A stretch of 64,000 nucleotides of DNA from Escherichia phage vB_EcoM-Ro111lw. A program made the position numbers and the translations under genes. The notes under the pieces are model-generated. The model was not told the origin of the DNA, made no database searches, and was given only the letters and a program-made list of their open reading frames with translations. The DNA lies in the sequence record MH571750.1. One strand, written 5' to 3'. Of the stretch, positions 6,325 through 51,542 are shown one piece after another (position 1 is the stretch's first letter; each line of letters opens with the position of its first letter).

Positions 6325-7208
6325 TATGCCTCCCCTGCTGGGTTAACTGTAACTGTTGCTGCATTAGATGTTACAGAGCCACCTGCACCAGTAACTACAC
6401 AGGTGTAGCTTCCTGAATCAGCAGCGGTTGCACCTTCTTTAGTGTAAGTTGCAGCGGTTGCATCAAGGATATCTTCCTCACCTTTCTTCCACTGGTAACC
6501 TGTTGCACCTGTTGCAGTAACTGCTAAGTTGATGTTTCCACCTTCATTAATAGTCTGGTTAGAAGGTTGCTTGGTAATCACAGGTAGTGCGTTCACAGTC
6601 ACTGTTGCTGCATCTGAGGTAACACTTGTTCCACCTTCTCCAGATACAACACAAGTGTATGAACCAGCGTCAGAAGGTGCTACTGACTGTTTTGTGTAAG
6701 TTGCAGAATTGGCACTAGGGATGTCCTCACCATCCTTTTTCCACTGATATCCAGTGGCGTTAGTTGCTAGAATGGTTAGAGTAAGTGTGCCACCCTCATT
6801 AACTGTTTGACCTGTTGGCTGCTGAGTAATTGCTGGTGGCTTGATAGCATCCTTCAACTTAGCATTCAACATTGAGAATGGTTTAACCCTTGCCAGCCAT
6901 TCACAATAAACTGTATCAACATCTTTACCATTGATAATTGCATATTGTAAGTCCATGAAGAAGTCAGAAGTTCTCATTTGAGCACCAACGCTGTAAAGCA
7001 ACTCATCACTAAATGGGACTTTGTAGTCTGGTTTGTAGTCAAACTTCTCAACTTCTGCAATATCAGCTTCAGGCCAATATGAACTATAGGTAAGTGGTAA
7101 AATAGCCTCTTGATATGTTCTAAAATCATATCTCTTACCAGCCTTTACGTTTGCAATGAAGCCCTTCACAAACTCTTTGAAGTCTGGGTAAGTCTTTGCT
7201 TTAATCAT
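6324..7208 (-). CDS. Protein with N-terminal domain of unknown function and two C-terminal Ig-like (I-set/Big-type) repeats
   Basis: Two tandem about 90-aa repeats each containing ...GYQWKK.GEDI...Y....A..D.GSYTCVV.G.GG..TS.AATVTVN; N-terminal 120 aa paralogous to the product of 7205..7576. Confidence 0.65.
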   Translation of the reverse strand: MIKAKTYPDFKEFVKGFIANVKAGKRYDFRTYQEAILPLTYSSYWPEADIAEVEKFDYKPDYKVPFSDELLYSVGAQMRTSDFFMDLQYAIINGKDVDTVYCEWLARVKPFSMLNAKLKDAIKPPAITQQPTGQTVNEGGTLTLTILATNATGYQWKKDGEDIPSANSATYTKQSVAPSDAGSYTCVVSGEGGTSVTSDAATVTVNALPVITKQPSNQTINEGGNINLAVTATGATGYQWKKGEEDILDATAATYTKEGATAADSGSYTCVVTGAGGSVTSNAATVTVNPAGEA

Positions 7209-7576
7209 TTCTTTTCAGCCTCTAAATGTGCGTTTAGTCTAAAATAACCTTTGTGATTCGGAGATACATCACCAACGACAATACCTTTAACCTTATAACC
7301 TTTACCAATTACATACTGGATATCCATAAGGAATCTTCCAAGACCAACAATATGGAACATTGGGTATAATAGATTCTCAGAGTCTGGAATATTAATTTCA
7401 GGTTTGTAGGTACGCTGTTCGATTGTTGGTGTAATATCTTCTTCAGGCCATTTACTGAGTCTCCATGTCAAAGGTGTTGGGATAACATCATTAAGGTTGT
7501 ACCTTTCACCATTTTGCACGGAATTGATATAGGATTGTAGGAAGCAATAAAAGTCTTTTGCACTCTTAGCTTTCAT
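7205..7576 (-). CDS. Hypothetical protein, paralogue of the N-terminal domain of the Ig-like protein
   Basis: MKAKSAKDFYCFLQSYINSVQNGERY... aligns with MIKAKTYPDFKEFVKGFIANVKAGKRY... and shares the MDIQY motif. Confidence 0.55.
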   Translation of the reverse strand: MKAKSAKDFYCFLQSYINSVQNGERYNLNDVIPTPLTWRLSKWPEEDITPTIEQRTYKPEINIPDSENLLYPMFHIVGLGRFLMDIQYVIGKGYKVKGIVVGDVSPNHKGYFRLNAHLEAEKK

Positions 7577-37474: not shown

Positions 37475-39835
37475 ATGGCAGATTACAAATTGAGTCAATT
37501 AAACTCAATCGACACAATTAGTTCAGAAGACCTATTGCACATCAGAGTTAAGAAAAGACCTGAAATGTTGGGTGACGAAGACCGTAGAATGACCTATCAA
37601 GACTTCTTAGCTTCCTTCAAACTAGAAAGGTTTGTTCAGATTGCTGGGAGCAATATGACGGGGGATTTAGGTATTGTCAAGTTACTTTACGGTGGCAAGG
37701 CTGTATTTGACCCTACAGGTTCTTCTGAAATTACTATTGGGGATGTTTTAAAGACTTTTAAACTTAACGCAAATGGTCTTAAACTAACTATTGCAGATGC
37801 TTCAAGGTCAGCAACTGTTTATCATACTCTGAATAAGCCAAGTCCTAATGAACTTGGGATGAGAACTAATGAAGAAAATGATGCAAGATATGCAAGACTT
37901 GCTGTTACAAATAACTTCAGTATTAGGCAAGCAATTGTAACTGATGGTGAGCAGTTAACTCTTAAGAAGGCAACCAATGCAGGTGCTTCATATATTCAAG
38001 GTAGAGATGCTAATAACCAGCAAACTTGGTATGTTGGACAGGGGACTTCAAACAGTACCAATGTTTATTTGTACAATCATGCTACTGGCTCAATGTTAAC
38101 CCTTGATGCAACAGCAGCATTTAATAAGTCACTTAGAATCTCCGGACAGATTCAACCTTCAGATTTCTCTAACTTAGATGCTAGATACTTCACTCAGACA
38201 GTTGCTAATCAGAGATTTGCACAGTTAGCTGGCAATAATACTTTTACAGGTGCTAACACTTTCACTAACCTTGTTGCTAAGAAGAATGCTAATGCTATTA
38301 CTTTACAGAATACTGATGCAAGTACAGCACTTTACATTCTCGGTAAGAAGTCTGATGGAACAAATAAATGGTATGTTGGTACAGATTCTGACGAGACACG
38401 TCTAAACATTTATAACTACCTTACAGGTTCACAGATTTCACTAGGTACTACTATTGGTATCAATAAGACTGTGCAAATCACTGGACAAGTCCAACCTTCA
38501 GATTGGGCTAATATTGACTCTAGATATATTCCGGCAGCAACATTAAGTACGATTGCAAGAACTAATGCTGCTAATACATTCTCTGCACAACAGGTTATCA
38601 ACTCTGATGGCGAAGCTCTTGCGTTACAAGCAAAAACTGTAACGTCATTGTTTATCAGAGGTAAATCTGCTGATGGAACTAGCAAGTGGTATGTTGGGAA
38701 TGGTGATGCCAGCGACATCTTAAACCTGTATAACTACAAGACAGGTAAAGGGCTTAACATTGGTTCATCATTCGAAATGAATGCAACTTTAACAATCACT
38801 GGGCAAGTTCAACCTTCAGATTTCTCTAACTTAGATGCTAGATATTACACGCAATCTACCGCAAACTCTAGGTATATGCTTGCTTATTCTTCTGGCACTG
38901 GTACAGAGGTAGGTGATAGTGATGGAATTGCTTGGAATGCTAAAACTGGTCTGTATAATGTTATAACGAAATCTGGTGGTTCAACACAACTGGTCTACCA
39001 TATGTATCAGGGTAGCAGTTCTACACCAGCAGCTCAGTTAAAATTTAACTACAACAATGGCGGTTTTTGGTATAGGTCAGCAAGAGACGGTTATGGTTTT
39101 GAGAGTGCTTGGTCTAAAATCTATACAGACAAAGATAAACCAACCCCTTCAGACATCGGTGCATACACTAAAGCTGAAACTGACCAGAAGATTGCAGATG
39201 CAATTAGTGACTCTACAGACCTGAATAAAATCTATCCAGTAGGGATTGTGACGTGGTTTAACAGTAATGTCAACCCTAACACAGCACTTCCTGGGTTAAC
39301 TTGGACGTACCTGAACAATGGTGTTGGCAGAACTATTAGAATTGCAGCAGCAAATGGTTCAGATGTTGCTACAACTGGTGGTTCAGACTCTGTAACATTA
39401 GCTGTTGGTAACTTGCCTTCACACACGCATAGTTTCTCTGCTACCACTTCATCATTTGATTATGGTACTAAGACTTCTAGCACAACTGGTAACCATAACC
39501 ACAACAGAGGGACTATGGAGATTACTGGTACAGTGGGTTACTTTAGAAGTGACTCTAGCAGCTTCTACACAGCAAGTGGTGCATTCACACTTGGTAGCTC
39601 AACTGCTTCTAAGGGTTTTACTGGCTCTAACTTCACTAATGGTATCCCTGCTAACTTTAATGCGTCAAGAACTTGGTCTGGTGTAACGAATACGACAGGT
39701 AACCACAGCCACACTGTTGGTATTGGTGCTCACAGCCACACAGTTAGTGGTAACACAGGTGGTACTGGTTCTGGTTCAGCATTTAGTGTTACTAACCAGT
39801 TCTATAAGTTAATGGCTTGGGTGAGAACTGCTTAG
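37475..39835 (+). CDS. Long tail fibre protein (786 aa) with internal repeats and His-rich HxH C-terminal domain
   Basis: Repeated about 90-aa units (…QPSDFSNLDARY… occurs twice, QPSDWANIDSRY once); C-terminus GNLPSHTHSF…GNHSHTVGIGAHSHTV…AFSV… parallels the 391-aa fibre. Confidence 0.75.
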   Translation: MADYKLSQLNSIDTISSEDLLHIRVKKRPEMLGDEDRRMTYQDFLASFKLERFVQIAGSNMTGDLGIVKLLYGGKAVFDPTGSSEITIGDVLKTFKLNANGLKLTIADASRSATVYHTLNKPSPNELGMRTNEENDARYARLAVTNNFSIRQAIVTDGEQLTLKKATNAGASYIQGRDANNQQTWYVGQGTSNSTNVYLYNHATGSMLTLDATAAFNKSLRISGQIQPSDFSNLDARYFTQTVANQRFAQLAGNNTFTGANTFTNLVAKKNANAITLQNTDASTALYILGKKSDGTNKWYVGTDSDETRLNIYNYLTGSQISLGTTIGINKTVQITGQVQPSDWANIDSRYIPAATLSTIARTNAANTFSAQQVINSDGEALALQAKTVTSLFIRGKSADGTSKWYVGNGDASDILNLYNYKTGKGLNIGSSFEMNATLTITGQVQPSDFSNLDARYYTQSTANSRYMLAYSSGTGTEVGDSDGIAWNAKTGLYNVITKSGGSTQLVYHMYQGSSSTPAAQLKFNYNNGGFWYRSARDGYGFESAWSKIYTDKDKPTPSDIGAYTKAETDQKIADAISDSTDLNKIYPVGIVTWFNSNVNPNTALPGLTWTYLNNGVGRTIRIAAANGSDVATTGGSDSVTLAVGNLPSHTHSFSATTSSFDYGTKTSSTTGNHNHNRGTMEITGTVGYFRSDSSSFYTASGAFTLGSSTASKGFTGSNFTNGIPANFNASRTWSGVTNTTGNHSHTVGIGAHSHTVSGNTGGTGSGSAFSVTNQFYKLMAWVRTA

Positions 39836-39914
39836 TCCCTTATTGACTGATTGTTAAGATGGTGCTAATATTCTTTATGGGTATTCTCACCATCTTGGCT
39901 GATGAGGTGATTAA

Positions 39915-40112
39915 ATGCCTACAATCCTAGCAATTCTTCTAAAAAATCTAGGTAGCTTCTTCTGGAAACTCATTTTATCCCTTCTAAGTGAATACATGAT
40001 TGAGAAAGTGTTCTTTAAGCTTGCAAGATACCTTGCGAGTAAGACAGACACACCTATTGATGATGAGTTCGTAGATAACTTAGAAAAAGCTTTTAAGGGG
40101 GAGAATAAATGA
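39915..40112 (+). CDS. Hypothetical small protein (65 aa)
   Basis: ORF track. Confidence 0.4.
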   Translation: MPTILAILLKNLGSFFWKLILSLLSEYMIEKVFFKLARYLASKTDTPIDDEFVDNLEKAFKGENK

Positions 40113-40480
40113 AGTGGCTAGAGGATGCTTTTAAAAATAATATTGGTGCAATTGTAGTTGGTATTTTTAGTGTTATTGGGATGTATACCACGATGCAGGT
40201 TTCAAGTGGTAAACAAGAAGTGTCTGTCACAACAAAGTTACAACAGCTAGATAATTATTCCAAAAGTAACTATTCAGCTATTCGTGATTTACAGTCTGAC
40301 ATGAGACTGATTCAGCTAGGGATGGAGAACCAGAAAGTCCAGTTAGAGAATGTTAAGGGTGAAAACGCAAAACTTACCAAAACCCTTGATAAATTCTCTG
40401 ACAGTGTGAACAATCTGGCTCAATCAGTATCAGCCTTGCAAGCTATTACTGAAAAGAACACAAAGAATACTGAAAAATAA
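40109..40480 (+). CDS. Hypothetical protein with N-terminal TM helix and coiled-coil (123 aa)
   Basis: N-terminal IGAIVVGIFSVIGMYTTMQV; remainder helical/Gln-Leu rich. Confidence 0.45.
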   Translation: MKWLEDAFKNNIGAIVVGIFSVIGMYTTMQVSSGKQEVSVTTKLQQLDNYSKSNYSAIRDLQSDMRLIQLGMENQKVQLENVKGENAKLTKTLDKFSDSVNNLAQSVSALQAITEKNTKNTEK

Positions 40481-40487
40481 AATTTAA

Positions 40488-40517
40488 GGCTCCTTTTTAC
40501 GGGAGCCTTTTTGTTTT
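40488..40517. terminator. Bidirectional rho-independent terminator between convergent gene blocks (GGCTCC / GGAGCC flanked by T-runs)
   Basis: aaggctcctttttacgggagcctttttgttttt read directly. Confidence 0.7.
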
Positions 40518-41416
40518 TACTTGCCTACTGACAGAGGTGCTTCAATCTTTCCTGCATGTTGGTAGTTGTTAATGCCACCAATAAAATCACTTGCAGTAAG
40601 ATGTTTCAGGTCACTTAAAGTATTAAGTGGTAGACCAATCTCAAAAGTTGGTGCATGGAACTCTTCATTGTTCATCAGTTCATAAACCTGTTTCATATGG
40701 TTCTGATAAATCTGAGTATCTCCAAAGACACCTATCAAGTACCGTGGAGTGTATCCAGTCATCTTACAAAGAACTTCTAAGATGAAACCATAAGACGCAA
40801 TGTTAAATGGAAGTCCTAAAAAGGTGTCTACAGAACGCTGATACCATTGCAAATCCACTTCACCTTCATTAGTGATATAAATCTGAAACAGAACATGACA
40901 AGGTGCTAAAGCCATTGAGTTTGCTGCAATATCTGCTGCATTCCAAGCATTAACAAGCATGTAACGGTCTGTGATATCACCCTTCATCTTCGTTACTAAG
41001 GTCTCTAGTTGGTCTACAACACAACCATTATGACCTTCAAAGTTTCTCCACTGAACCCCATAGATTCTCCCACCTGCATCATCTAACCAATCTTGTTCAG
41101 AAGAATAATTAGAGCTTAACCAGCGTTTAAAATCATCTGACCAGATAGTCCAGCGTTCCCCGTCATTTTCATCCCAAGTACGGTAACGAAGTTCACCCAG
41201 CTTATTCTCACCATTCAGGAACCATAAAGCCTCCCCAATAACTTGCCGTGTAAACACCTGTTTAGATGTTAAGAGCGGGAAACCAGTCCTCATATCAAAA
41301 CGAAACTGAGGTGGAGCAAAAGCAGAGATAACATCTCCAGTTCTTGTAGTACGCAGTTCACCAACGGATAAAACATGGTTCAGGATATTTTTGTAACTTG
41401 TATCTGCTTGTGACAT
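40517..41416 (-). CDS. thyA: Thymidylate synthase (ThyA/Td type)
   Basis: Contains the active-site region ...ALAPCHVLFQIY... and the overall conserved ThyA sequence pattern (RTGTGT..., DLQWYQRSVD, GLPFNIASY). Confidence 0.9.
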   Translation of the reverse strand: MSQADTSYKNILNHVLSVGELRTTRTGDVISAFAPPQFRFDMRTGFPLLTSKQVFTRQVIGEALWFLNGENKLGELRYRTWDENDGERWTIWSDDFKRWLSSNYSSEQDWLDDAGGRIYGVQWRNFEGHNGCVVDQLETLVTKMKGDITDRYMLVNAWNAADIAANSMALAPCHVLFQIYITNEGEVDLQWYQRSVDTFLGLPFNIASYGFILEVLCKMTGYTPRYLIGVFGDTQIYQNHMKQVYELMNNEEFHAPTFEIGLPLNTLSDLKHLTASDFIGGINNYQHAGKIEAPLSVGK

Positions 41417-41417
41417 A

Positions 41418-41963
41418 TCAAAAGTGTCCTTTTACTTGTGGAACATAAATTTCAAAAGTTGCTTTACCATCCTCTGATGGTTTTGACTGTACCTTTGTAA
41501 ACACACGGTTATCATACAGCTTCTCAAAGAAGTTTTCAAAAGGTAAATGCACAGTGGCCTCTTCAGTAACTTTATGGAAAACAGTATGGAACACCACACT
41601 AGCATACGGTAAAGCATTGACAAGGATACCTGCACCACCAATTACAAAGACATCTTCATCAATAGAGCTATCAAGATACTTCAAAAATGCTCCAAATGAC
41701 TCTTTACTGGCTTTAGCATACATTATCTCATCTTTGCCAAAATCTATGCCTAAGTATGGTACAGAATTTGTTAAGATTAGGTTTGCACGTTCTGGTAAAG
41801 GTTTACTCCCCAGAGTCTTGAAAGTCTCGTTACCCATCACTACTAAGTTGTTTTTAGTGAGTCTCTTAAACTCTTGCATGTCCTGTTTATGTCGAGGCCA
41901 CGGCATACCAGTTGGAGTACCAAACTCACCATTTTCACCACTTGCAAAGATTAATTTAATCAT
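41418..41963 (-). CDS. frd: Dihydrofolate reductase
   Basis: N-terminus MIKLIFASGENGEFG...GMPW...VVMGNETFKTLG matches the DHFR fold signature; adjacent to thyA as in T4-type phages. Confidence 0.85.
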   Translation of the reverse strand: MIKLIFASGENGEFGTPTGMPWPRHKQDMQEFKRLTKNNLVVMGNETFKTLGSKPLPERANLILTNSVPYLGIDFGKDEIMYAKASKESFGAFLKYLDSSIDEDVFVIGGAGILVNALPYASVVFHTVFHKVTEEATVHLPFENFFEKLYDNRVFTKVQSKPSEDGKATFEIYVPQVKGHF

Positions 41964-42220
41964 TTTGTAAATCCTTTCTTAATGAACCAGTTGATAACAT
42001 TCTTCACCGCTTTATTGCTATGATAGATTAAGTGTGGTGCAGGTTGGTATGAACCATAAGCCCAGAAAGCAATAATTTCACTACACCCTGTACACCTTGT
42101 ACTCTCTTCAGCAATATGACCGTTGACTATTTCACTTACCTCACCTTGTAAGTCTGTGCATCCACAATGTGGACAACGGATAGGTGCTCCGTCAGACTCA
42201 TAGCAGTGTTCAATTTTCAT
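41960..42220 (-). CDS. Hypothetical Cys4 zinc-ribbon protein (86 aa)
   Basis: CPHCGC ... CTGCSE pairs. Confidence 0.5.
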   Translation of the reverse strand: MKIEHCYESDGAPIRCPHCGCTDLQGEVSEIVNGHIAEESTRCTGCSEIIAFWAYGSYQPAPHLIYHSNKAVKNVINWFIKKGFTK

Positions 42221-42736
42221 TTATTTAACCTCAAAAACTGGTTCAAGAACCAATATAAAATCTACACAGTCATCTTCTTCATCCAGAATACCATCAAAGT
42301 TCTTAGGAACGAAGTCGAAGAGGCTCATCACAAAGCAGTCAGAAGTAACCCTGATAGTTCCTCCAATGTTCTCTACAGTTAACACTGTACGACTTTCTTT
42401 TACCTCTCGCAAAAGATTACTCACAAAGTCATCTAAGAAGTACTTCATCAGTGATTTAAAGCCTTTAGGGTAATCTGTACCAGAGTATGTTTCAATCTGA
42501 GGTACAAGCTTAACATTTATACTAGTCTTTGTTAAGAATGTGTTAGAGAACATACTATCAGGTAACTTACAAACAATCTTTCCAGTACCTTCATGTTCAA
42601 TCTCAACAAAACCAGCTTCATCGCCACATGTAACTATTTTAAAAGATGCTTCATTCTCACACTGTGAAGCCATAAACTTTTTAAGCATCACTTTAAGGAA
42701 ATCTGCATGAGCATCTTGTAAGTAGACATCAATCAT
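42221..42736 (-). CDS. Hypothetical protein (171 aa)
   Basis: ORF track. Confidence 0.5.
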   Translation of the reverse strand: MIDVYLQDAHADFLKVMLKKFMASQCENEASFKIVTCGDEAGFVEIEHEGTGKIVCKLPDSMFSNTFLTKTSINVKLVPQIETYSGTDYPKGFKSLMKYFLDDFVSNLLREVKESRTVLTVENIGGTIRVTSDCFVMSLFDFVPKNFDGILDEEDDCVDFILVLEPVFEVK

Positions 42737-42749
42737 AGTTAATCACCTA

Positions 42750-43109
42750 TTATGGGAACAGACACTTAATGTCATCATTTTTGAAAACGAAGCTTGTGTA
42801 ATTGTGACCATCAACATCCAGCCAAACAGCCTGAACATCTACACCATCAAGATTGTGGTAAAGCTCTTTGATGAAGTGGTCTTTTACAATCTGGCTACTA
42901 GTTGTTTCCAGCTTAATGTTTGAGATTGCTGAACCTACAGCCATATAACCCATGACACGTTTCTTCTCAGTATGCTTAATCTTACCATCTTTATAAGCCA
43001 TAATGAGATTGGAAAGAATCTTCACACCATAATACTTTTCAAGGTGAGTAGGTACACCATAAAAGCCTAATGCGAAGTTTTCAGAGTGGATAATGTTTTC
43101 ACGTTTCAT
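42750..43109 (-). CDS. Hypothetical protein (119 aa)
   Basis: ORF track. Confidence 0.5.
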   Translation of the reverse strand: MKRENIIHSENFALGFYGVPTHLEKYYGVKILSNLIMAYKDGKIKHTEKKRVMGYMAVGSAISNIKLETTSSQIVKDHFIKELYHNLDGVDVQAVWLDVDGHNYTSFVFKNDDIKCLFP

Positions 43110-43110
43110 A

Positions 43111-43440
43111 TTAATCTGCCAGCCTTAAATTAAAATTAACACCAAATTTTTCGCATACTTCCAACATATACTCAAGGGAGACATTACCAGTGAGGTGGAT
43201 TATGTTGGATACGCGAGCCTGAGAGATACCACAAATTTTAGCAACTTGCTCTTGAGAAAGACCTCTGGATTTAATCTCTCTCTTAAAACGATGTGCAACG
43301 AAGTCTCTCATTTCGTCTACATCCATTGGACAAATATAACTCTCCATTTCAGCCTCTCTGTCAGCCTCCCAATCATCTTGTGGAGCATAAGGGTCAAAAG
43401 TCTCATTCATCTTTCTTCTTCCGTTTGCGTGAAGTGTCAA
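43111..43440 (-). CDS. Helix-turn-helix (XRE-like) DNA-binding protein (109 aa)
   Basis: GLSQEQVAKICGISQARVSNIIH is a classic HTH recognition pattern. Confidence 0.6.
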   Translation of the reverse strand: MTLHANGRRKMNETFDPYAPQDDWEADREAEMESYICPMDVDEMRDFVAHRFKREIKSRGLSQEQVAKICGISQARVSNIIHLTGNVSLEYMLEVCEKFGVNFNLRLAD

Positions 43441-43615
43441 TCAATGAATCTATGTTTGTAGCCCTAACCTTTTCACGTTCATCGTTAAGATAATCATCAA
43501 GAGCCTTTTCAATCTGTGAATCATCTTGACAGATAACTGTAAAGACTGTAAAGCCGTCTGTATCATCAATTATCTTACCATAACCACTTCTAGGATGTAA
43601 CTTTTTAAGAGCCAT
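43403..43615 (-). CDS. Hypothetical protein (70 aa)
   Basis: ORF track. Confidence 0.4.
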   Translation of the reverse strand: MALKKLHPRSGYGKIIDDTDGFTVFTVICQDDSQIEKALDDYLNDEREKVRATNIDSLIDTSRKRKKKDE

Positions 43616-43616
43616 A

Positions 43617-44000
43617 TCAAATACCTGTGCAGCTTCTGTTTTCTAAGAAATACTCAACACCATACATAGCTTTTTGCATCAAATCTTCTTTAAACTGAAT
43701 ACGATGATTGAGCATAGTCTGTACATCAATATCATCAGGGTGCTTCTCTTTAATATTTGCAGATTGCAGGAAATACTCTGCAAGAACACGATACTGATAG
43801 TCAGTTACCTTATCAGTCATCTCTGTTAAAGACTCTTCAGAGATTGGTTTAAGTAACTCACCATTAGTCAAAGCAACACCTTTAACAATCTGACAAGTGT
43901 CTTCTGGAACACCTGATAAGTCCACATTTGGGAGTTCTGTTGCATTGACTGGTAAATTCATTGACATAACCATTGCAGCAGCTAATAAAATCTTTTTCAT
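43617..44000 (-). CDS. Predicted secreted/periplasmic protein (127 aa, N-terminal signal peptide)
   Basis: MKKILLAAAMVMSMNLPVNATE signal-peptide-like N-terminus. Confidence 0.5.
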   Translation of the reverse strand: MKKILLAAAMVMSMNLPVNATELPNVDLSGVPEDTCQIVKGVALTNGELLKPISEESLTEMTDKVTDYQYRVLAEYFLQSANIKEKHPDDIDVQTMLNHRIQFKEDLMQKAMYGVEYFLENRSCTGI

Positions 44001-44431
44001 AATGACCTCAAAGTTATATTAAATTTTGTATTACATTGAGCATAAAAATAAGCTATAACACCTGACTTGTCAACAGATTTTATAGCTTATTTGGCAGATT
44101 TTTTATAAGGCTACTGCCATCCTTCCATACCAGACCACACCATGCAAAACCAGACTTCACATCGCCTTGCCGTGCAATACATTACTTAAAAACCCTCTTA
44201 GAAGACTCTTAAGTGATGCTGGTGAGTACCTGTTGGTTTATGCTGCTCAGTATACTCACCAAATTTTCTATGTCAACAACTTTATATAAAAGTCCTGATA
44301 GCTATATGTGTTACAAAACAGAAGATTGTGAACAAGACACCCATTGCAAAGGATGTGTTCAAAAGTTTACTTGTTATGTAAGACAATACAAAGACAACTA
44401 ATGCAAACAGAATGATTGTGCTTAACATAGT

Positions 44432-45535
44432 TTACTCATAATCCCTAATAACTAGCCCAACAGGAAACTGTAAAGAACCCTTACGAGTCATCTTCTGGAA
44501 CTGAACCGTTAAAGGCTTCCCAATAAACTCTTCAGGATGCTCAGCAAGATACTGTTTCTTCTCATGAGTAGTCTTCCATGAGACATCTACAAAGACGTTA
44601 GGAAGAGTCTCTACAACGAACTTGCCATGACCACGCTTATCAGTCTTTACACCAGTCACTTTAAACTCTTCAGTGTGCATCTTCTTGTGCTTAATCAAGA
44701 AGTATGAACGGTGACAGCACTCATAGAAGGAGTCTTCAGAGATTGAACGGTACATTGCACCTTCAAACTTAGCTTCAACCCACTTATCATGAGCTTCATC
44801 AAACTCTTCCCAAGAATTTACACGACGAGACTTAACAGGAACAACTTTACAGCCGTCTCTAAAGTCATTCAATGGTGAAGTCTCAATAATATCTCTACGC
44901 TCAGGCCACGTCTTAGTACTGTCACAGATATCATACCAGTAAAACTTAAGTAGATGACGGTCAGGATTGTCTTCATTTTTAATCATAGAGACAATATCTT
45001 CTAAGTCCCACCCATGAGCATAAATCTCACCATCAAATTCATCAACATCTTTGTGGAGCCTTAACATTGCCATAATGTCAGGTATTAGCTCAGTGGGGAT
45101 TTTATAAACAGTATTCTCACGAGAGTATGCTGTAAATACACTACCAATGCTTAAGTGTCTTGAAATTCTACAACGGACACCATCAAGTTTTGGTTGAGCG
45201 TCAGCAGGGAACTTCAGATACTTTGCATGACTAACCTTTGCAGCATCATGAGCAAGCTGTACACCTACCTTCTCAGTATTCTGTGCAGACTCTTTTGTGT
45301 AAGCATAACCTTTGCGGTCAACTTGTTTTTTATACTTAGCAGCAACTTCAAAGAGAGCTTGTTGTTCAGCGTTACGCTCATTCTTTTTACCGATGTTTTT
45401 AGGTTCTGCTGTATACTCTTCAAACATCATCTTGCCATTTTCTTTGCCATACGTGGTAACAACTTTGTCACCTACAGCGACACATGACCAGACGTTAAAA
45501 GAGCCATCTTTATTTTGTTTGTATAGAATTGTCAT
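44432..45535 (-). CDS. ATP-dependent DNA ligase
   Basis: Adenylation motif I KLDGVRC (KxDG) in ...AQPKLDGVRCRIS...; size 367 aa consistent with T7-type ligases. Confidence 0.85.
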   Translation of the reverse strand: MTILYKQNKDGSFNVWSCVAVGDKVVTTYGKENGKMMFEEYTAEPKNIGKKNERNAEQQALFEVAAKYKKQVDRKGYAYTKESAQNTEKVGVQLAHDAAKVSHAKYLKFPADAQPKLDGVRCRISRHLSIGSVFTAYSRENTVYKIPTELIPDIMAMLRLHKDVDEFDGEIYAHGWDLEDIVSMIKNEDNPDRHLLKFYWYDICDSTKTWPERRDIIETSPLNDFRDGCKVVPVKSRRVNSWEEFDEAHDKWVEAKFEGAMYRSISEDSFYECCHRSYFLIKHKKMHTEEFKVTGVKTDKRGHGKFVVETLPNVFVDVSWKTTHEKKQYLAEHPEEFIGKPLTVQFQKMTRKGSLQFPVGLVIRDYE

Positions 45536-45540
45536 TCAAA

Positions 45541-46089
45541 TTACCTTAGCATGTGTGATTTTACTGGAATAAAGATACCAAATTGTGAGACTGCTAAATC
45601 AGATAGTGACATACACTGTTCAGGTAAGTACACAAAAACCCCTGTGTAGAAGTCTATAAAAGAACCATCATCTTGTTTGCAGGCTAGTTTTCCATAACCA
45701 TAGTTGTACAACTTTAATGAACCATCATCATACTTTAAGTAGTTCTTGAACTGAACATTAAAAGCATATTCAGAGAACCTTGTGTACAGGTCATAAAGCA
45801 ACCCAATACTGTCGTCGACTATTGCTACACCAAACTTTTTACAAATATCTACATAGTTTTTGTATAATTTATTATGATTTTCAGGTGTTGCAAAGTTTGT
45901 ATACCAATGTTCTAAGATAGATAACTTAATTGGCTGATTTTTAGAATATTCTAATACCTTCATGTCATACCAAGATTTCCTAAGTCTGACATCATCTAGC
46001 CTTAAATTTTGAGACACTTCACGGAAGTTTTTGATGATTATATTTCTGCGCCTATTGTCAATCATAATCAGCCCTCTGAGTGATACCAA
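45541..46089 (-). CDS. Hypothetical protein (182 aa)
   Basis: ORF track. Confidence 0.5.
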   Translation of the reverse strand: MVSLRGLIMIDNRRRNIIIKNFREVSQNLRLDDVRLRKSWYDMKVLEYSKNQPIKLSILEHWYTNFATPENHNKLYKNYVDICKKFGVAIVDDSIGLLYDLYTRFSEYAFNVQFKNYLKYDDGSLKLYNYGYGKLACKQDDGSFIDFYTGVFVYLPEQCMSLSDLAVSQFGIFIPVKSHMLR

Positions 46090-46259
46090 GTATTACAAGC
46101 ATTACATGCGTAAAGCTCTAAGTCATTTTTATCTGGTTTATGAAAACAGTTTGCTCCGCAGTGGCAACGAAACGGCTTTCCACCAACTGTCAGGATGAAG
46201 GATTGAACCTTTCCATCTGGAGTTCGTACAGCATTTTTATGCTTATCTTCTTTGTTCAT
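46068..46259 (-). CDS. Hypothetical zinc-finger-like small protein (63 aa)
   Basis: CHCGANCFH ... CNACN. Confidence 0.4.
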   Translation of the reverse strand: MNKEDKHKNAVRTPDGKVQSFILTVGGKPFRCHCGANCFHKPDKNDLELYACNACNTWYHSEG

Positions 46260-46462
46260 TTTCTCTTACCACCAATCTCTACGTCAATAACTTGAACATC
46301 ACCAGCAACATCAAACTTATGAATGATGCTTTCCACAGTGTAAGTCCAACCCTCGATTCGAACCAACTCACCTTCTCGTGGGACGATTGGGTTACGTTGA
46401 GCTACGGTTGTAGTGGAGTGAACAACATCATAACAGTAGATATAGTTTACTAGGACTTCCAT
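46256..46462 (-). CDS. Hypothetical protein (68 aa)
   Basis: ORF track. Confidence 0.4.
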   Translation of the reverse strand: MEVLVNYIYCYDVVHSTTTVAQRNPIVPREGELVRIEGWTYTVESIIHKFDVAGDVQVIDVEIGGKRK

Positions 46463-46472
46463 CGTAAAAACC

Positions 46473-46730
46473 TCACTCTATAACAGTAGTGTGTGATTGA
46501 CCATTTTTGCCATAGCTATAAGATGTTGTTGTTTGAGAGTTTGGACATCTGACAACAACAATATCTCTGCTTATTGCATCCCCATTTAACTTATAGACTT
46601 TGCAATCTTGCATCTCTGGTGGGAGACTATAAGAAGCATTTTTGTCCTCATAAGAGGGGTTGCAGCCAGATAGAAAAAGTACTCCAAGTGCAACCATTGC
46701 TTTCACACAACTCTTAACCTTATTGTTCAC
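46473..46730 (-). CDS. Predicted lipoprotein (85 aa; signal peptide plus lipobox LSGC)
   Basis: MNNKVKSCVKAMVALGVLFLSGCNPS...; candidate superinfection-exclusion type lipoprotein (inference). Confidence 0.55.
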   Translation of the reverse strand: MNNKVKSCVKAMVALGVLFLSGCNPSYEDKNASYSLPPEMQDCKVYKLNGDAISRDIVVVRCPNSQTTTSYSYGKNGQSHTTVIE

Positions 46731-46862
46731 GATAGTCTACCTCTCTGTATGTTTTTAAATAGTGAGTGATGAGTTCTGGTAATTCACTACGTTTAACGTT
46801 TGAACGAAGAAGTGTCCAGTCAAAACCTTTACCAACCCTTCCCCAGAGACTGTACATTTTCT

Positions 46863-47096
46863 TCATAGCAACTCCAGAATATCAATACGTTCACCTTTAA
46901 GTACTCCAGTACGGTCTTTTGCAATCTTACCGTCAACGATAAGGATGTGTGTAGACCTTAAAGCGTCGTTGTTAAAGGTTTTTACGAACTTGCTAGGCAT
47001 GACTACAATGGACATCTCCTGAATTAACTCTGGAGTGTAGCAGTTATCATGAAGTTGCTGAATAACGTCTGCAAGTGTCATTTTTGATGTCTCCAA
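46863..47096 (-). CDS. Hypothetical protein (77 aa)
   Basis: ORF track. Confidence 0.4.
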   Translation of the reverse strand: METSKMTLADVIQQLHDNCYTPELIQEMSIVVMPSKFVKTFNNDALRSTHILIVDGKIAKDRTGVLKGERIDILELL

Positions 47097-47287
47097 TATT
47101 CAATATCTACAAGTTCTTGTGCAATACTTTTCAGATTACCTTTCAAGAAAACCTTCTCAGAACCTGAAAGAGATGAATTGTCAATTAACCTGTTCATTCT
47201 CTCAAACAACTTCTGCTTACGATTTTTGATAGTCTCCTTTGAAGCACCTTTCATCATCGCTGCATGGGTTCTTCCACGATGGCTCAT
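47078..47287 (-). CDS. Hypothetical basic protein (69 aa)
   Basis: ORF track. Confidence 0.4.
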   Translation of the reverse strand: MSHRGRTHAAMMKGASKETIKNRKQKLFERMNRLIDNSSLSGSEKVFLKGNLKSIAQELVDIEYWRHQK

Positions 47288-47348
47288 AAGCCCTCCTATA
47301 TAAGATATAGTATAAGGTACTCTTCCATGAGCACCTTGTCAATACTAA

Positions 47349-50048
47349 TTAGTGTACTTCAAGCCAGCTTTTACCAACCTTACCAGTACCTGTTACAAGT
47401 GTTTCTTTCTTAAGACCTAAGTTCTTAGAAGCTTGTCCATAATACCAGTCAGTAACTGCTTTCACTTCTGCCGTCATACTTTCTGGACATTCCCAGCTTG
47501 TTTCATCGTGATATGCGCAGAGCAAACGAGCACCAATAGCTGGTTTACGACCATTTAACTTCATCAAACCTTCGTCAATCATACGACGACAAGCAAGGTT
47601 AATTGCCTCATTTTGAATCTGACTTTCCGAACCCATAAGCAAATAATTCAATAACTTATGTGGAGATTTACACCACAACCAAGCTCCAGCAACCTTTACG
47701 AAGCCCCCTTTAGAGATTGCAGCAGTCTTACCAAACACCTCTTCAAGTGCCTTTTTAGTCGCTTTGTAGTCAGCTTCCAAGTCATCCAGCAGCTTCTTAA
47801 TTTTAGGCAAACGAATAAAGTAAGTCTGTTTGGTCAGTGCACCTTCCTGAGTAGTTGCAGCTTTAATCGTCTTAGCAAACTTCTCATCACCTGCACCGAA
47901 CAGCAGTGCATAGATACCATTCTTAGCTTTCTTACGACCCTTGCTAATCTCATGGAGAAGGTTCTCATCCTGAGTAGCTCGACAAGTCAAGATATCCTGC
48001 TCATCATTCAAGCTAAAGTAAATACTGTTCAGTGTGTGTGCATCAGTCCCTGAATAGACAACGTACAGGTCATTCTCAGAGTCATAGCGAAGGTACTTAT
48101 CAATCTCTGGGTTGAGGTACTCATCAAAGTGTTTGCAGTAATAGCGTCCATCCTCTTGACGAATAAACTCAATCTCTTCTTTACCTTGCGTTACCGCTTT
48201 GGTGAAGTCTTTGTCACCCATAAAGTTACAAAGGAGAACTAGCTGGGCTGAGTTCATGTCTACAGAGACAACGTTAGTACCTTCCTCACAAATCCACACT
48301 GCCCTCATTGGTTCCCCATAGACAGCAGCACCAGACGGTACGTTTACAATACCATATTGTGTCATACGTCCAGTTGAAGTACCAAATACCATTGCACCAG
48401 CACTAAGGCGACCATCAGGACGAATCTGGTTTAGCCAACCTTTTTCATCATCCTTTGAGTTCTCAATGGTTCTGCGTCGGTGCATCAAAGTATAGTACTT
48501 AGCAATCTTCTGTCCAAGCTCACCTTCAATCGTATCATAAGAAGATTCAGTAAGTTTTGGTGAAGTACGGATTAAACAAGGCTCAAGCAAATCTGTGTAC
48601 TTCTTAACAGACCAGTTATGCTCAATGTACTGGACACCTTCATGTTCAACATAACTCAAGCCACACCGTTCAACCATCTCCTGCCACTTAGGATGCTTGG
48701 TAATCATCTTTTTGTTGTCTTTGAAACGACAAACCTTAACAGGACGACCATCTGAGTCTTTCTTGTAGTTCCAGTCATCTGGAATCCAACCAACTGATTT
48801 CAAGTAATCTTTAACAACTGCTACCTGAGTCATACGAGAAACTTCGAACTCAATTGGTGTATATGGTGCATCAATCAAACCTGTGTAGCGACTTGACTCA
48901 AGTCCAAAGTGGTTAACAACATGGCTGTTATAGTACTTCACAGTCTTAACTGTTTTTACTGGCTTCCAGTCTTTGCATTTCTTACCAATCTTTGCATTCA
49001 ACTCATTGCAAATTGCACGAGCATCCTTCATTGCTACAAAACCTTCCTTGTACTCTTCACCAGTTACAGAGTTGGTTGGCGTATAGCAATTTCTCTTTTC
49101 AATGTTAAAAATCTTTGTAGTTGGCTTACCAAATGGTTTGATTTCATAAGTCTGCATCTCACCATTACGTACCTGCTGACGATACTTTGTCTTAGGGTAC
49201 TTGGTAATCCTCTTCAGTCCATCTGCATGACCAAATGTTTCAACATACTCATTCCAAGCCTTTGCAAACTCTTCACCAGTTACTTTACCTTTGGTCTTAA
49301 TAGTTGGTGGTAGATGTGGTTCAACCTCTGAAGCAAGCTCATTAGTCAACTTGTCAAGTTCCTTTACATGGAACTCCATAAGTTCTTTATCAGCTTTCCA
49401 ACCATTGATAGCTTGCTGGCTCATCCAGAAAGATGTCTCTTTAGCTCGCATGTAGGTTTCATAAGTGTCTATGCCACACTTCTTAAGCTTGAGATACTCG
49501 TTATCAAGTGCCCGTTTAGTTTTGGCGTTAATACGGATATCTTCTACAACACGAGTGAAGATTTCTGCATTCCACACACCCCAATGTTCAATCTCTGGCT
49601 TACGAACACCAACACGAGCACCCCATGCAGCCAAACCATGAGCACCTTTATAACCCTTTGGAGTTGGTCTATCCATCCACTGAACACGAGACTGGATAAG
49701 AGAATCCTGAAAGAAATTACTCCACGGCTTACATTTTGGATTATCAAAGTTCCATAAATCCGGTGCAATGTGATTGAAGACCCACCAGTCATAACCGAGG
49801 CCGTTATGGATACAAAGTCGTTTTGCCTTTAACGCAAACTCAACACCTTCACGTAAACCACCCTTAATGTACTTAGTGTACTTGTGACCGAGGATAGGCT
49901 CATCTGTAAAGACCCATACAGGTGGCTCTTCATCGTCAGATTTATAGTCTGCAAAGGCCATTACGTGAACTTTAGTGAACTCAAGGAGTAAACCATCAGT
50001 TTCTGTATCACCAACCAAATGTAAGTTTTTAAAATCTACGTTTTCCAT
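47349..50048 (-). CDS. DNA polymerase, family A (T7 gp5-like), with 3'-5' exonuclease domain; start placed at the internal Met preceded by an RBS
   Basis: Exo motif VGDTETDGL near N-terminus; polymerase motif C region ...LLCAYHDETSWECPE...; ORF track gives 47349..50078 but GGGAGT sits 6 nt upstream of the ATG at 50048. Confidence 0.9.
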   Translation of the reverse strand: MENVDFKNLHLVGDTETDGLLLEFTKVHVMAFADYKSDDEEPPVWVFTDEPILGHKYTKYIKGGLREGVEFALKAKRLCIHNGLGYDWWVFNHIAPDLWNFDNPKCKPWSNFFQDSLIQSRVQWMDRPTPKGYKGAHGLAAWGARVGVRKPEIEHWGVWNAEIFTRVVEDIRINAKTKRALDNEYLKLKKCGIDTYETYMRAKETSFWMSQQAINGWKADKELMEFHVKELDKLTNELASEVEPHLPPTIKTKGKVTGEEFAKAWNEYVETFGHADGLKRITKYPKTKYRQQVRNGEMQTYEIKPFGKPTTKIFNIEKRNCYTPTNSVTGEEYKEGFVAMKDARAICNELNAKIGKKCKDWKPVKTVKTVKYYNSHVVNHFGLESSRYTGLIDAPYTPIEFEVSRMTQVAVVKDYLKSVGWIPDDWNYKKDSDGRPVKVCRFKDNKKMITKHPKWQEMVERCGLSYVEHEGVQYIEHNWSVKKYTDLLEPCLIRTSPKLTESSYDTIEGELGQKIAKYYTLMHRRRTIENSKDDEKGWLNQIRPDGRLSAGAMVFGTSTGRMTQYGIVNVPSGAAVYGEPMRAVWICEEGTNVVSVDMNSAQLVLLCNFMGDKDFTKAVTQGKEEIEFIRQEDGRYYCKHFDEYLNPEIDKYLRYDSENDLYVVYSGTDAHTLNSIYFSLNDEQDILTCRATQDENLLHEISKGRKKAKNGIYALLFGAGDEKFAKTIKAATTQEGALTKQTYFIRLPKIKKLLDDLEADYKATKKALEEVFGKTAAISKGGFVKVAGAWLWCKSPHKLLNYLLMGSESQIQNEAINLACRRMIDEGLMKLNGRKPAIGARLLCAYHDETSWECPESMTAEVKAVTDWYYGQASKNLGLKKETLVTGTGKVGKSWLEVH

Positions 50049-50106
50049 TTTTACTCCCTCTAAAATCATTAACCTCATACATTACTGCAAAAAATTATAA
50101 AAAGCA

Positions 50107-50131
50107 AGTTGACAATGTACTTGACAAGGTG
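50107..50131 (+). promoter_or_regulatory. Second copy of the tandem-TTGACAA 25-nt motif (GTTGACAATGTACTTGACAAGGTGT) in a divergent intergenic region
   Basis: 24/25 identical to 8683-8707. Confidence 0.5.
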
Positions 50132-50305
50132 TTAATCTTTGCGAAGTGGGTTTTTACTTAAAAGGTTACTTAACAGTTTAACTATACAGATACTTTAAAA
50201 CTCTTAAAAGATTATTTAATAGCTTTTAAAAAGCTTTAAAGTATAACGTATAGAATACGTTAAGATAAAAGATTAAAACTTAATAGTTACTTAAAAGAGG
50301 CTTAC

Positions 50306-50728
50306 ATGCAGAAAATGTTTGTTCACCCAGACATAGCTGACTTTGTTAGAGCTTTGCAGAAGTTGGAAGAACTTGACATTGCTGCTCAACGGGAATATGC
50401 TCACCATCACAGGAGAATGGTTGATATACAACATGAAATAGAGTTGTCTGAAAACTATGAAGATGACTTAAAATGCTCTGTATTTGAGCATATGAAAGAT
50501 GTTGCTACAGCGAGACGTAAAGCTAAAGACACAGTTGCTTTACTAGATTCTCTTAAAAAGAGGTTGCAAAGTGGTACAGACCTGTGTAATCTAGCGTCAC
50601 TGATTAACGATGTTGAAACTTCTTGGGATAGGCACTATTATCCACGTTCTGAAAAGACACTTGACTTTTCTTCATCTGAAAACTTAAAATGTTCTAGAAA
50701 GAAACTTAACCAACTGAGAGAGAAATAA
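50306..50728 (+). CDS. Hypothetical protein (140 aa)
   Basis: ORF track. Confidence 0.5.
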   Translation: MQKMFVHPDIADFVRALQKLEELDIAAQREYAHHHRRMVDIQHEIELSENYEDDLKCSVFEHMKDVATARRKAKDTVALLDSLKKRLQSGTDLCNLASLINDVETSWDRHYYPRSEKTLDFSSSENLKCSRKKLNQLREK

Positions 50729-50729
50729 T

Positions 50730-51542
50730 ATGAATACTACTGTAGACCAGATGCTTGAAGAGAAAGGTGTTGATGAAGCATTCTTAATCAATGCCGTAGA
50801 AAGCATGGCTATGATTCTTCGTGGTAATAACTACACAGAACAGTTTATGCCTGCAAGCTATAACTTGCCTGAAGACAAGTCTGATAACAGTGCTTTTGCA
50901 GAACAGGTCAACATGATGCTTTGCGACAAAACACTTGCTCTGGCATCTATTGCGGTTGGTGTTGATGCTCTTGCAGAGTTTATTTTTTATGAGATGCAGA
51001 GAAATGACTATATCAGGATGTCAGACGAAGATAAGGAACTGTTGCTGACTAAGGACACTGATTTCATTATTGATACGCTTATCTCATCAACGAGTGCTGT
51101 TATGGCTGTTCTTGAGAAGCGCATGGAAGAGAAACTTTCACGATATGAAAAACTTGATTGGGGCGTAGAAGAACTAAACCCACGAATCAAGGAGATTATC
51201 CAGCAAACTAAAGAGTCTTTGGAAGAAGCTGTTGAGAATGACTCTGTAGCTGATGTAGAACCACTACAGGTGAAGGTTGCTCTGATGATTCCAGCTATTT
51301 CTACAATGATGAATATCGTTGCACTAATCCAACTTTCTCAGATGTTGGGTGTAACCATTGAGTTCGTTGAGGAGATGACTGGTGGTGTCAGTATGCAAGC
51401 AATCAATGATGTTTTGGTAAACATTGGTGCTTCAATCATTGAAGAGAAGCTACGTATCAACTTCGGTGATGATTTTGTGAAGCAAATCTCAGCTATGGCT
51501 GAAAAAGAGCACTCACAAATTACCAGTGACCAACTGCACTAA
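50730..51542 (+). CDS. Hypothetical protein (270 aa)
   Basis: ORF track. Confidence 0.5.
   Translation: MNTTVDQMLEEKGVDEAFLINAVESMAMILRGNNYTEQFMPASYNLPEDKSDNSAFAEQVNMMLCDKTLALASIAVGVDALAEFIFYEMQRNDYIRMSDEDKELLLTKDTDFIIDTLISSTSAVMAVLEKRMEEKLSRYEKLDWGVEELNPRIKEIIQQTKESLEEAVENDSVADVEPLQVKVALMIPAISTMMNIVALIQLSQMLGVTIEFVEEMTGGVSMQAINDVLVNIGASIIEEKLRINFGDDFVKQISAMAEKEHSQITSDQLH

Follow-up and report, generated by a model that had tools for sequence, protein, structure and literature searches.

The 64,000-nucleotide stretch analysed here (hereafter ‘the window’) comes from Escherichia phage vB_EcoM-Ro111lw (sequence record MH571750.1), a Felix O1-like myovirus of Felixounavirus (Ounavirinae), and the subject of this account is a block of small minus-strand genes at positions 41960-47287, three of which are predicted to encode exported proteins: a lipoprotein, a secreted helical protein and a small membrane protein. 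Elsewhere the window carries a 26-gene tRNA cluster as well as structural and nucleotide-metabolism genes of Felix O1 type. The interval is bounded by DHFR (41418-41963) on one side and DNA polymerase (47349-50078) on the other, and lies within a leftward transcription unit running from DNA polymerase (ORF96 in Felix O1) to thymidylate synthase (ORF80; 40517-41416), which is closed by a bidirectional terminator at 40486-40509. It holds 15 tightly packed, often overlapping open reading frames (ORFs), one for an ATP-dependent ligase and 14 for small proteins; the initial annotation of this DNA had counted at least 11 small genes here besides the ligase, and the coordinates it gave hold. Each ORF has orthologues in related phages and pairwise ratios of non-synonymous to synonymous substitution (dN/dS) of 0-0.17 within the genus, and we therefore take them as real genes rather than chance reading frames, all of them under purifying selection.

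A nucleotide search with the interval matched 259 phage records, all Felix O1-like myoviruses. For 143 of them a single match spanned at least 80% of its length; the best matches were 93-96% identical, with Escherichia phage adrianh at the top. The interval is orthologous and syntenic to ORF82-94 of Felix O1 (NC_005282), and the same orthologues occur in Felix O1 and >140 Felixounavirus genomes, where ORF91 corresponds to the lipoprotein and ORF87 to the secreted protein. As a sequence the cluster is already known, and it is functionally unannotated.

A hydropathy scan located hydrophobic segments in exactly three of the 14 small proteins: one N-terminal segment each in the 127-aa protein and the 85-aa protein, and a pair of segments in a 48-aa protein (tm48). 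The 85-aa protein has the N-terminus of a prolipoprotein (MNNKVKSCVKAMVALGVLFLSGC), with a positively charged n-region, a hydrophobic h-region and a lipobox; the signal peptide MNNKVKSCVKAMVALGVLFLSG ends immediately before the lipobox Cys, and the predicted mature protein comprises 63 aa starting from Cys23-Asn-Pro. Its start, which overlaps the upstream gene by 11 nt, is preceded by a Shine-Dalgarno-like sequence (GAGAGG), and an alternative in-frame GTG at 46706 would give an equally valid signal peptide. In a six-frame scan of the whole window, this was the sole ORF with a credible lipobox. The initial annotation had described a lipoprotein with an LSGC lipobox at this position, and both its coordinates and the lipobox are borne out, the Cys being invariant in 89 homologues. 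We consider the lipoprotein very probably targeted to the envelope, judging from these features.

The lipoprotein matched phrog_902 (E=1.6e-17 over residues 2-83), and tblastn found relatives in 579 phage records, of which ~196 were at the level of Ounavirinae (>=60% identity) and 383 belonged to unrelated phages, including Vibrio phages of ~114 kb, Acinetobacter phages of 55-150 kb, jumbo phages of E. coli (121Q) and Erwinia, and others. A profile search with the family returned 181 protein clusters, each carrying a precomputed Pfam assignment to PF16225 (DUF4884); unlike these precomputed annotations, a direct hmmscan against the Pfam copy used gave no PF16225 match even at E<=10. Both phrog_902 and DUF4884 are families of unknown function. 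A literature search on Felixounavirus in connection with lipoproteins or superinfection exclusion, and on DUF4884, found no functional work; DUF4884 is named in just two papers, within tables of genes and proteins.

Identity among the 89 aligned members falls to ~25%, and a lipobox-like tetrapeptide is present in 89/89. The invariant columns are C23, C43 and C62 only, the latter two separated by 17-20 residues throughout, within the consensus Y-x-LP-x-EL-x-DC-x-IY ... VVRCPNS-x-T-x-T-x-Y-x-x-GK. This three-Cys pattern is as expected for what is probably a lipidated protein with one periplasmic disulphide (C43-C62). An AlphaFold2 (AF2) model built from the 89 sequences was beta-rich and of low confidence (predicted local distance difference test, pLDDT, 59.5). 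The residue at +2 is Asn, which by the +2 rule predicts sorting to the outer membrane in enterobacteria. In 27 of the 89 members (30%), mostly jumbo-phage copies (CDGS, CDAS), the +2 residue is Asp, while most of the remainder have Asn, Glu, Thr or Ser; the anchoring membrane is therefore perhaps not conserved in the family, and different members may sit in different membranes.

The lipoprotein gene has a dN/dS of 0.06-0.34. It appears to be dispensable, horizontally mobile and stand-alone, because no conserved partner gene was found beside it in distant phages, it is missing from SUSP1, and frameshifted copies (P0013/P0014) occur in some contigs. In the Vibrio phages it lies between origin-binding and helicase genes. 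A 59%-identical homologue on a 50-kb contig, considered as a case of T1-like horizontal transfer, was discarded as such, the contig being another member of Ounavirinae with the same synteny. In adrianh (L001) an intact lipoprotein gene at 7288-7542 is unannotated, and an extended 100-aa ORF has been called instead. A family member of 129 aa, whose C-terminus forms a long tail rich in Pro, Arg and Glu, was also seen on a 629-kb bacterial contig of Paraburkholderia sp. EG287A (L012 8001-8390), adjoining RdgC and Band_7 genes and not far from tatABC; the family thus extends outside recognisable virulent phages, perhaps here as a prophage remnant.

The 127-aa protein begins with MKK and a hydrophobic core followed by VNA|TE, with predicted cleavage after VNA20 leaving an acidic mature part of 107 aa. 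The signal peptide pattern was present in 9/9 sequences of the family (MKK, hydrophobic core, then VNA|T, ASA|M or AYA|D), upholding the initial annotation of a signal-peptide protein at 43617..44000, and the protein is very probably directed to the envelope (Sec, signal peptidase I type). AF2 modelled it as a three-helix bundle (helices 31-45, 55-86 and 93-121; pLDDT 87), with pLDDT <50 for residues 1-18, block-mean values of 85-99 for residues 21-127 and >90 over most of the mature protein. C36 and C124 are invariant in all orthologues and fall, in the model, at the start of helix 1 and just past helix 3; a stapling disulphide is therefore plausible, and C36-C124 probably holds the bundle together.

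The family of the secreted protein was found only in Ounavirinae, in 258 phage records. A word-indexed search gave four clusters, and a full HMMER scan of 1.8 billion proteins gave five representatives, all of them Ounavirinae orthologues. A structure search returned no significant match in PDB or BFVD except its own orthologue, and PDB sequence searches with this protein and with the lipoprotein gave nothing meaningful. Between genera it is 32-34% identical, as against 57-88% for its neighbours, and its dN/dS of ~0.55 is the highest in the block, with dS saturated; it and p171 are the two fastest-diverging conserved genes between genera. The third candidate, tm48, has hydropathy windows at residues 1-23 and 25-45 and is predicted to form an inner-membrane hairpin. 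It was not listed in the initial annotation; among the loci compared it was restricted to Felixounavirus, being missing from SUSP1 and Sf13.

The helix-turn-helix (HTH) protein reported in the initial annotation was recovered well above the Pfam cut-off for HTH_3 (39.4 bits versus 23, E=6e-10) and matched phrog_1373 ‘transcriptional regulator’ (E=2e-26). It is 76-78% identical in SUSP1/Sf13, and its ATG start at 43410, which agrees with other annotations, gives an 8-nt overlap with the upstream gene.

The secreted-protein gene is preceded by a gap of 281 nt (44001-44281), in which we recognised strong sigma-70-like promoters directly upstream of the gene, among them a near-consensus promoter P1 (TTGACA-16-TATACT, 44276-44249). 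A hairpin begins in the P1 spacer, further hairpins follow, and an inverted repeat with 19-nt arms (44046-44064 / 44074-44092) and a 9-nt loop containing a second TTGACA is followed by a T-run; the fold z score is -2.8. SUSP1 and Moogle share exactly the same final 95 nt of the module, from which the window departs at one base (TATGCT for TATACT), and the module has been kept although the flanking coding sequence has diverged past saturation (~33% protein identity). The genomes of adrianh, SUSP1 and Moogle have a copy of the module on either side of an optional two-gene cassette. An Rfam search found nothing in the module. The palindrome formed by the inverted repeat, which is conserved in Felix O1, adrianh, Bas63, SUSP1 and Moogle, could serve the co-transcribed HTH protein as an operator (autoregulation) or act as an intrinsic terminator, or do both; it is terminator-like because a T-run follows it, and the stretch from P1 to this point would define a ~200-nt non-coding transcript.

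Its half-site occurs once in the window and once in the complete Moogle genome, which led us to reject a wider operator regulon for the HTH protein. Sf13 keeps the HTH gene without the palindrome, and has at that place a different promoter-plus-hairpin of the same architecture. The suggestion in the initial annotation that the HTH protein may be the cognate regulator fared unevenly: the conserved palindrome around the -35 element of the secreted-protein promoter is one hint in its favour for that gene, and nothing links the HTH protein to the lipoprotein, because the lipoprotein gene lies upstream of the module and SUSP1, which lacks the lipoprotein, keeps the HTH protein.

The module resembles the PeSL (promoter-early stem-loop) cassettes known from T4-type phages in combining a strong sigma-70-like promoter with a stem-loop and in occurring as repeated copies flanking optional cassettes. 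It differs from them in sequence, in its added tract of GG pentamers and in the putative second promoter inside the palindrome. The tract just mentioned (44117-44141, minus strand) reads GGTGT GGTCT GGTAT GGAA GGAT GG and is the sole such run in the 64-kb window (~0.04 in shuffles). At the same position Bas63 has a clean 10-nt tandem repeat, TAGGTATGGT, in 7.7 copies (L006:5170-5246), and SUSP1 and Moogle have several longer GGT-periodic tracts. The tract could reflect DNA curvature, iterons or an RNA element.

Published RT-PCR data for Felix O1 place the maximum for ORF83, 84, 87, 88, 89, 90, 93 and 96 at 25 min and that for ORF81 at 10 min (PMC3185647). The secreted protein (ORF87) is transcribed with the replication genes (PMC3185647). 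The initial annotation had named presence of the proteins in virions as evidence that would count against it; mass spectrometry of Felix O1 virions detected no product of ORF82-94 (PMC3185647).

The features of the interval are collected in Table 1. Apart from the HTH protein, scans of the small proteins against Pfam, NCBIfam and PADLOC gave no significant functional match. Both zinc ribbons of the initial annotation are retained, their Cys knuckles being kept in every orthologue examined: C16/C19/C43/C46 of ZnR86 (CxxC...CxxC) are invariant in six orthologues from three genera, and C32/C34/C38/C52/C55 of ZnR63 in all orthologues examined. Matches of ZnR86 to ECs_2282 and Lar were below cut-off and limited to the CxxC motifs. 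The ZnR63 gene is mislabelled ‘DNA ligase’ in public records, for instance in adrianh (L001) at 6880-7071. Like the secreted protein, p171 evolves fast between genera, with 33-36% identity to SUSP1/Sf13 compared with 95-97% within the genus.

Table 1 Features of the interval 41960-47287 (window coordinates, except in the last row)
Feature	Felix O1 orthologue	Position	Strand	Family or characteristics
86-aa zinc-ribbon protein (ZnR86)	ORF82	41960..42220	-	phrog_2993; dN/dS 0.08-0.12
171-aa acidic cytoplasmic protein (p171)	ORF83	42221..42736	-	phrog_4422, E=7e-90; no hydrophobic segment
119-aa protein (p119)	ORF84	42750..43109	-	phrog_4116
99-aa XRE/Cro-C1-type HTH protein, acidic N-terminal extension	ORF85	43111..43410	-	Pfam HTH_3
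70-aa protein (p70)	ORF86	43403..43615	-	phrog_4473
127-aa secreted protein (sec127)	ORF87	43617..44000	-	Predicted Sec signal peptide, modelled three-helix bundle
Conserved intergenic regulatory module		44001..44281	-	Promoters, hairpins, GG-pentamer tract, inverted repeat
48-aa basic protein with two hydrophobic segments (tm48)		44282..44428	-	phrog_22006, E=7e-31
ATP-dependent DNA ligase	ORF88	44432..45535	-	Pfam DNA_ligase_A_M + OB_2
p182 (174 aa, or 182 aa from TTG at 46089)		45541..46065	-	No family
63-aa zinc-ribbon protein (ZnR63)	ORF89	46068..46259	-	phrog_5768
68-aa protein (p68)	ORF90	46256..46462	-	phrog_4427; 88-100% identity across three genera
85-aa prolipoprotein	ORF91	46473..46730	-	phrog_902 / DUF4884; lipobox LSGC
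48-aa basic protein (p48)	ORF92	46720..46866	-	phrog_2381
72-aa protein, 77 aa from TTG at 47096 (p77)	ORF93	46863..47081	-	phrog_4230
69-aa basic protein (p69)	ORF94	47078..47287	-	phrog_5180
Equivalents of the regulatory module in comparison loci		L006:5042-5481, L007:5470-6000, L009:31603-32145		

The description of the cluster as accessory applies to a part of it. The lipoprotein, ZnR63, tm48, p48, p77, p69 and above all p182 vary, whereas 41960-44000 and 46256-46462 are kept across three genera of Ounavirinae; the core seen in Felixounavirus, Suspvirus, Mooglevirus and one metagenomic lineage consists of ZnR86-p171-p119-HTH-p70-sec127, the ligase and p68. Without a match in PHROGs, Pfam, NCBIfam or PADLOC, p182 was found in only 15 phage records (four of them at >95% identity) and is missing from Felix O1, Bas63, SUSP1 and Sf13; on this distribution it is a genuinely rare accessory gene that has been inserted between those of the ligase and ZnR63. 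The window thus differs from Felix O1 in having p182, and also in lacking the HNH endonuclease (ORF95) before the polymerase; nor does the window have the optional two-gene cassette that can separate the ligase gene from ORF87.

As far as export and topology are concerned, we hold it to be highly probable that the block encodes three exported, non-virion proteins in an operon transcribed with the replication genes, and the envelope targeting that had been proposed for the lipoprotein and the signal-peptide protein is well supported by sequence and conservation. The interval forms the distal part of the leftward polymerase-to-thymidylate-synthase unit, an ordinary operon of middle genes for a Felix O1-like phage, to which it contributes the ligase and 14 small non-structural genes. 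The lipoprotein is predicted to be cleaved and lipidated at Cys23 and to display towards the periplasm a beta-rich domain of 62 residues closed by a Cys43-Cys62 disulphide, the Sec-secreted three-helix bundle would reside in the periplasm, probably stapled by Cys36-Cys124, and tm48 would be an inner-membrane protein with two transmembrane (TM) segments. We infer that these proteins are made in the replication phase and would work from the periplasm on the infected cell's envelope.

The lipoprotein would most likely bind an envelope or periplasmic component conserved across Proteobacteria, and not a phage-specific receptor; we favour such a target because of the conserved motif, the unrelated hosts and receptors of the carriers, the stand-alone gene and the variable sorting residue. 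The benefit would most likely lie in shielding the infected cell from a second attack: competing phages would be shut out, when they adsorb or afterwards, or else the envelope would be made more stable. The HTH protein would be a core XRE-type regulator of the same operon, and may autoregulate the secreted-protein promoter. Taken as a whole, this explanation (exported, periplasm-facing effectors acting on conserved envelope targets) is put forward tentatively as quite possible; that the phenotype is superinfection exclusion in a broad sense is conceivable, if on the doubtful side. A more far-reaching and rather speculative proposal is that the DUF4884/phrog_902 lipoproteins, which span Ounavirinae, ~114-kb Vibrio phages, Acinetobacter phages and jumbo phages of E. 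coli, Erwinia and Yersinia, form a new widespread class of membrane-tethered periplasmic effectors acting on one Proteobacteria-wide envelope component, e.g. a peptidoglycan enzyme or an envelope-spanning machine, with receptor-independent exclusion or envelope takeover as the result; the three-helix bundle would then be a second, Ounavirinae-specific layer.

Several points weigh against the proposal of conserved envelope targets. No experiment or homologue ties the three exported proteins to a phenotype, and no match was obtained in PADLOC or in the annotated PHROG exclusion families. The idea of a conserved periplasmic target draws solely on the distribution of the family and its variable +2 residues, and lipoprotein sorting rules differ between host species. 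For the secreted protein, PDB gave no structural match at E<1, and what was returned were generic three-helix bundles; for the lipoprotein, the pLDDT of 59.5 precluded a fold search or comparison. ORF91 is not among the genes listed in the RT-PCR study, the method of which is semi-quantitative (PMC3185647).

The form of exclusion raised by the initial annotation was receptor blocking, in which the lipoprotein and/or the secreted protein would occlude the phage's own receptor under control of the neighbouring HTH protein, much as T5 Llp and T1/phi80 Cor block FhuA. In architecture T5 Llp is arguably the closest functional analogue: the Felixounavirus protein is likewise a small lipoprotein that a virulent phage produces ahead of lysis, with a predicted outer-membrane signal (Asn at +2) and a Cys pair, and both Llp (annotated ‘Cor superinfection exclusion protein’, NC_005859) and Cor share with it ~60 mature residues and a Cys pair, a virulent lifestyle, expression before lysis and stand-alone, dispensable genes. 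The dispensability and patchy distribution of the lipoprotein gene, and the unique palindrome at the promoter of the secreted-protein/HTH operon, would also fit. The likeness does not extend to the sequences, however, since alignment of the mature family profile with mature Llp by hhalign gave a probability of 0.85%, with 30 shuffled controls reaching up to 0.8%; homology with Llp was rejected, a 75.8% match at full length having stemmed from the signal peptide alone and being gone for the mature domains. The Cys spacing is 19 residues in the ORF91 lipoprotein compared with 47 in Llp. In T5, llp abuts the receptor-binding gene oad/pb5, whereas the lipoprotein gene here is ~6.6 kb from the tail-fibre gene, on the opposite strand and not beside a receptor-binding gene. 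The family, with its motif strongly conserved, is also found in phages that infect Vibrio, Acinetobacter and Erwinia; these phages are unrelated and cannot all use a single receptor, and 30% of the family members have Asp at +2. SUSP1, which has the HTH protein and no lipoprotein, and Sf13, which has it without the palindrome, speak against control by the HTH protein. Finally, Felix O1-type phages use the lipopolysaccharide (LPS) core as receptor, and Felix O1 is known to bind LPS rather than a protein. Given the missing homology of the mature domains, the lack of linkage to a receptor gene, the unrelated hosts and the LPS receptor, blocking in the form known from T5 Llp and Cor is disfavoured, and we regard it as very unlikely.

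Similarly improbable is a role in the lysis programme, with the lipoprotein as an o-spanin or the periplasmic helical protein as an antiholin or lysis-timing regulator like T4 RI, itself a small secreted helical protein. There is no other lipoprotein ORF in the window, the nearby ‘holin’ (40109-40480), in which a single TM segment at the N-terminus is followed by a long coiled-coil tail, recalls T4 T or an i-spanin, and this group of phages encodes rIIA/rIIB; yet the exported-protein genes sit in the replication operon and are transcribed with it, and the lack of a structural match for the secreted protein speaks against such a role. The identification of the lipoprotein as an o-spanin was abandoned, because Moogle has an orthologue of it (Moogle40) plus a separate, overlapping Rz-like/o-spanin pair of unrelated lipoprotein sequence, no i-spanin gene adjoins the lipoprotein gene (the neighbouring genes being without TM segments), and the lone spanin match among PHROGs (E=0.18) covers the signal peptide region only. 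In addition, Pro is not abundant in the mature lipoprotein, for which beta structure is predicted, and SUSP1 does without this protein. T4 also offers Spackle (Sp) and Imm, a small periplasmic helical protein and a small two-TM protein of a virulent myovirus with rIIA/rIIB; an Sp/Imm-like pair of sec127 and tm48 is an attractive, unsupported analogy. Fold searches lend no support to a Spackle-type identity of sec127, and Pfam finds no lysozyme domain in the baseplate or tape-measure proteins, so that a target for Sp is not evident.

The small genes might instead be host-takeover or anti-defence factors of cytoplasmic logic, among which the exported proteins would be incidental, acting e.g. against envelope-associated defence or stress systems. 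Small acidic and basic proteins, zinc ribbons (one with the weak Lar-like match) and rare accessory genes such as p182 are in keeping with this, as is an insertion hot spot with optional cassettes, which is typical of phage counter-defence regions. Significant matches to known anti-defence or defence families were, however, absent, those of ZnR86 to Lar and ECs_2282 being the sub-threshold, motif-limited ones described above, and the greater part of the block belongs to the core of three genera and does not vary; we judge this alternative unlikely.

Felix O1-like phages are used in Salmonella typing, biocontrol and therapy, and their ORF82-94 are annotated almost wholly as ‘hypothetical’. Three products of this block can now be assigned, by prediction, to the envelope, one of them belonging to a large uncharacterised lipoprotein family of very different virulent phages. 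What is most useful here is that the DUF4884/phrog_902 three-Cys lipoproteins can be defined as a widespread and testable phage envelope factor, which offers experiments a concrete and inexpensive target. If a conserved periplasmic component were indeed the target, a receptor-independent mechanism would be added to the few known systems of exclusion and envelope control, and this could affect the behaviour of phages in cocktails; if not, what is gained is no more than an improved annotation of a common phage operon.

Further observations concern the surroundings of the block. A scan of 39500-51000 against Rfam gave sub-threshold matches only, including one to the sRNA STnc100 at 40434-40518 (plus strand; 28 bits versus a gathering score of 47), which overlies the bidirectional terminator between the ‘holin’ and thymidylate synthase and is probably just the terminator hairpin. 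The protein called ‘holin’ in relatives (40109-40480, plus strand) shows a weak DivIC match and is similar to class III holins or i-spanins; for its orthologue in Felix O1 (ORF79) the transcription maximum is reported to fall at 5 min, an unusual time for a lysis gene, and the small ORF upstream of it (39915-40112, plus strand) is also hydrophobic. At the other end of the block, just 61 nt (47288-47348) separate the 69-aa gene from DNA polymerase in the window, a position that is occupied by an HNH homing endonuclease gene in Felix O1, adrianh, Bas63, SUSP1 and Sf13.

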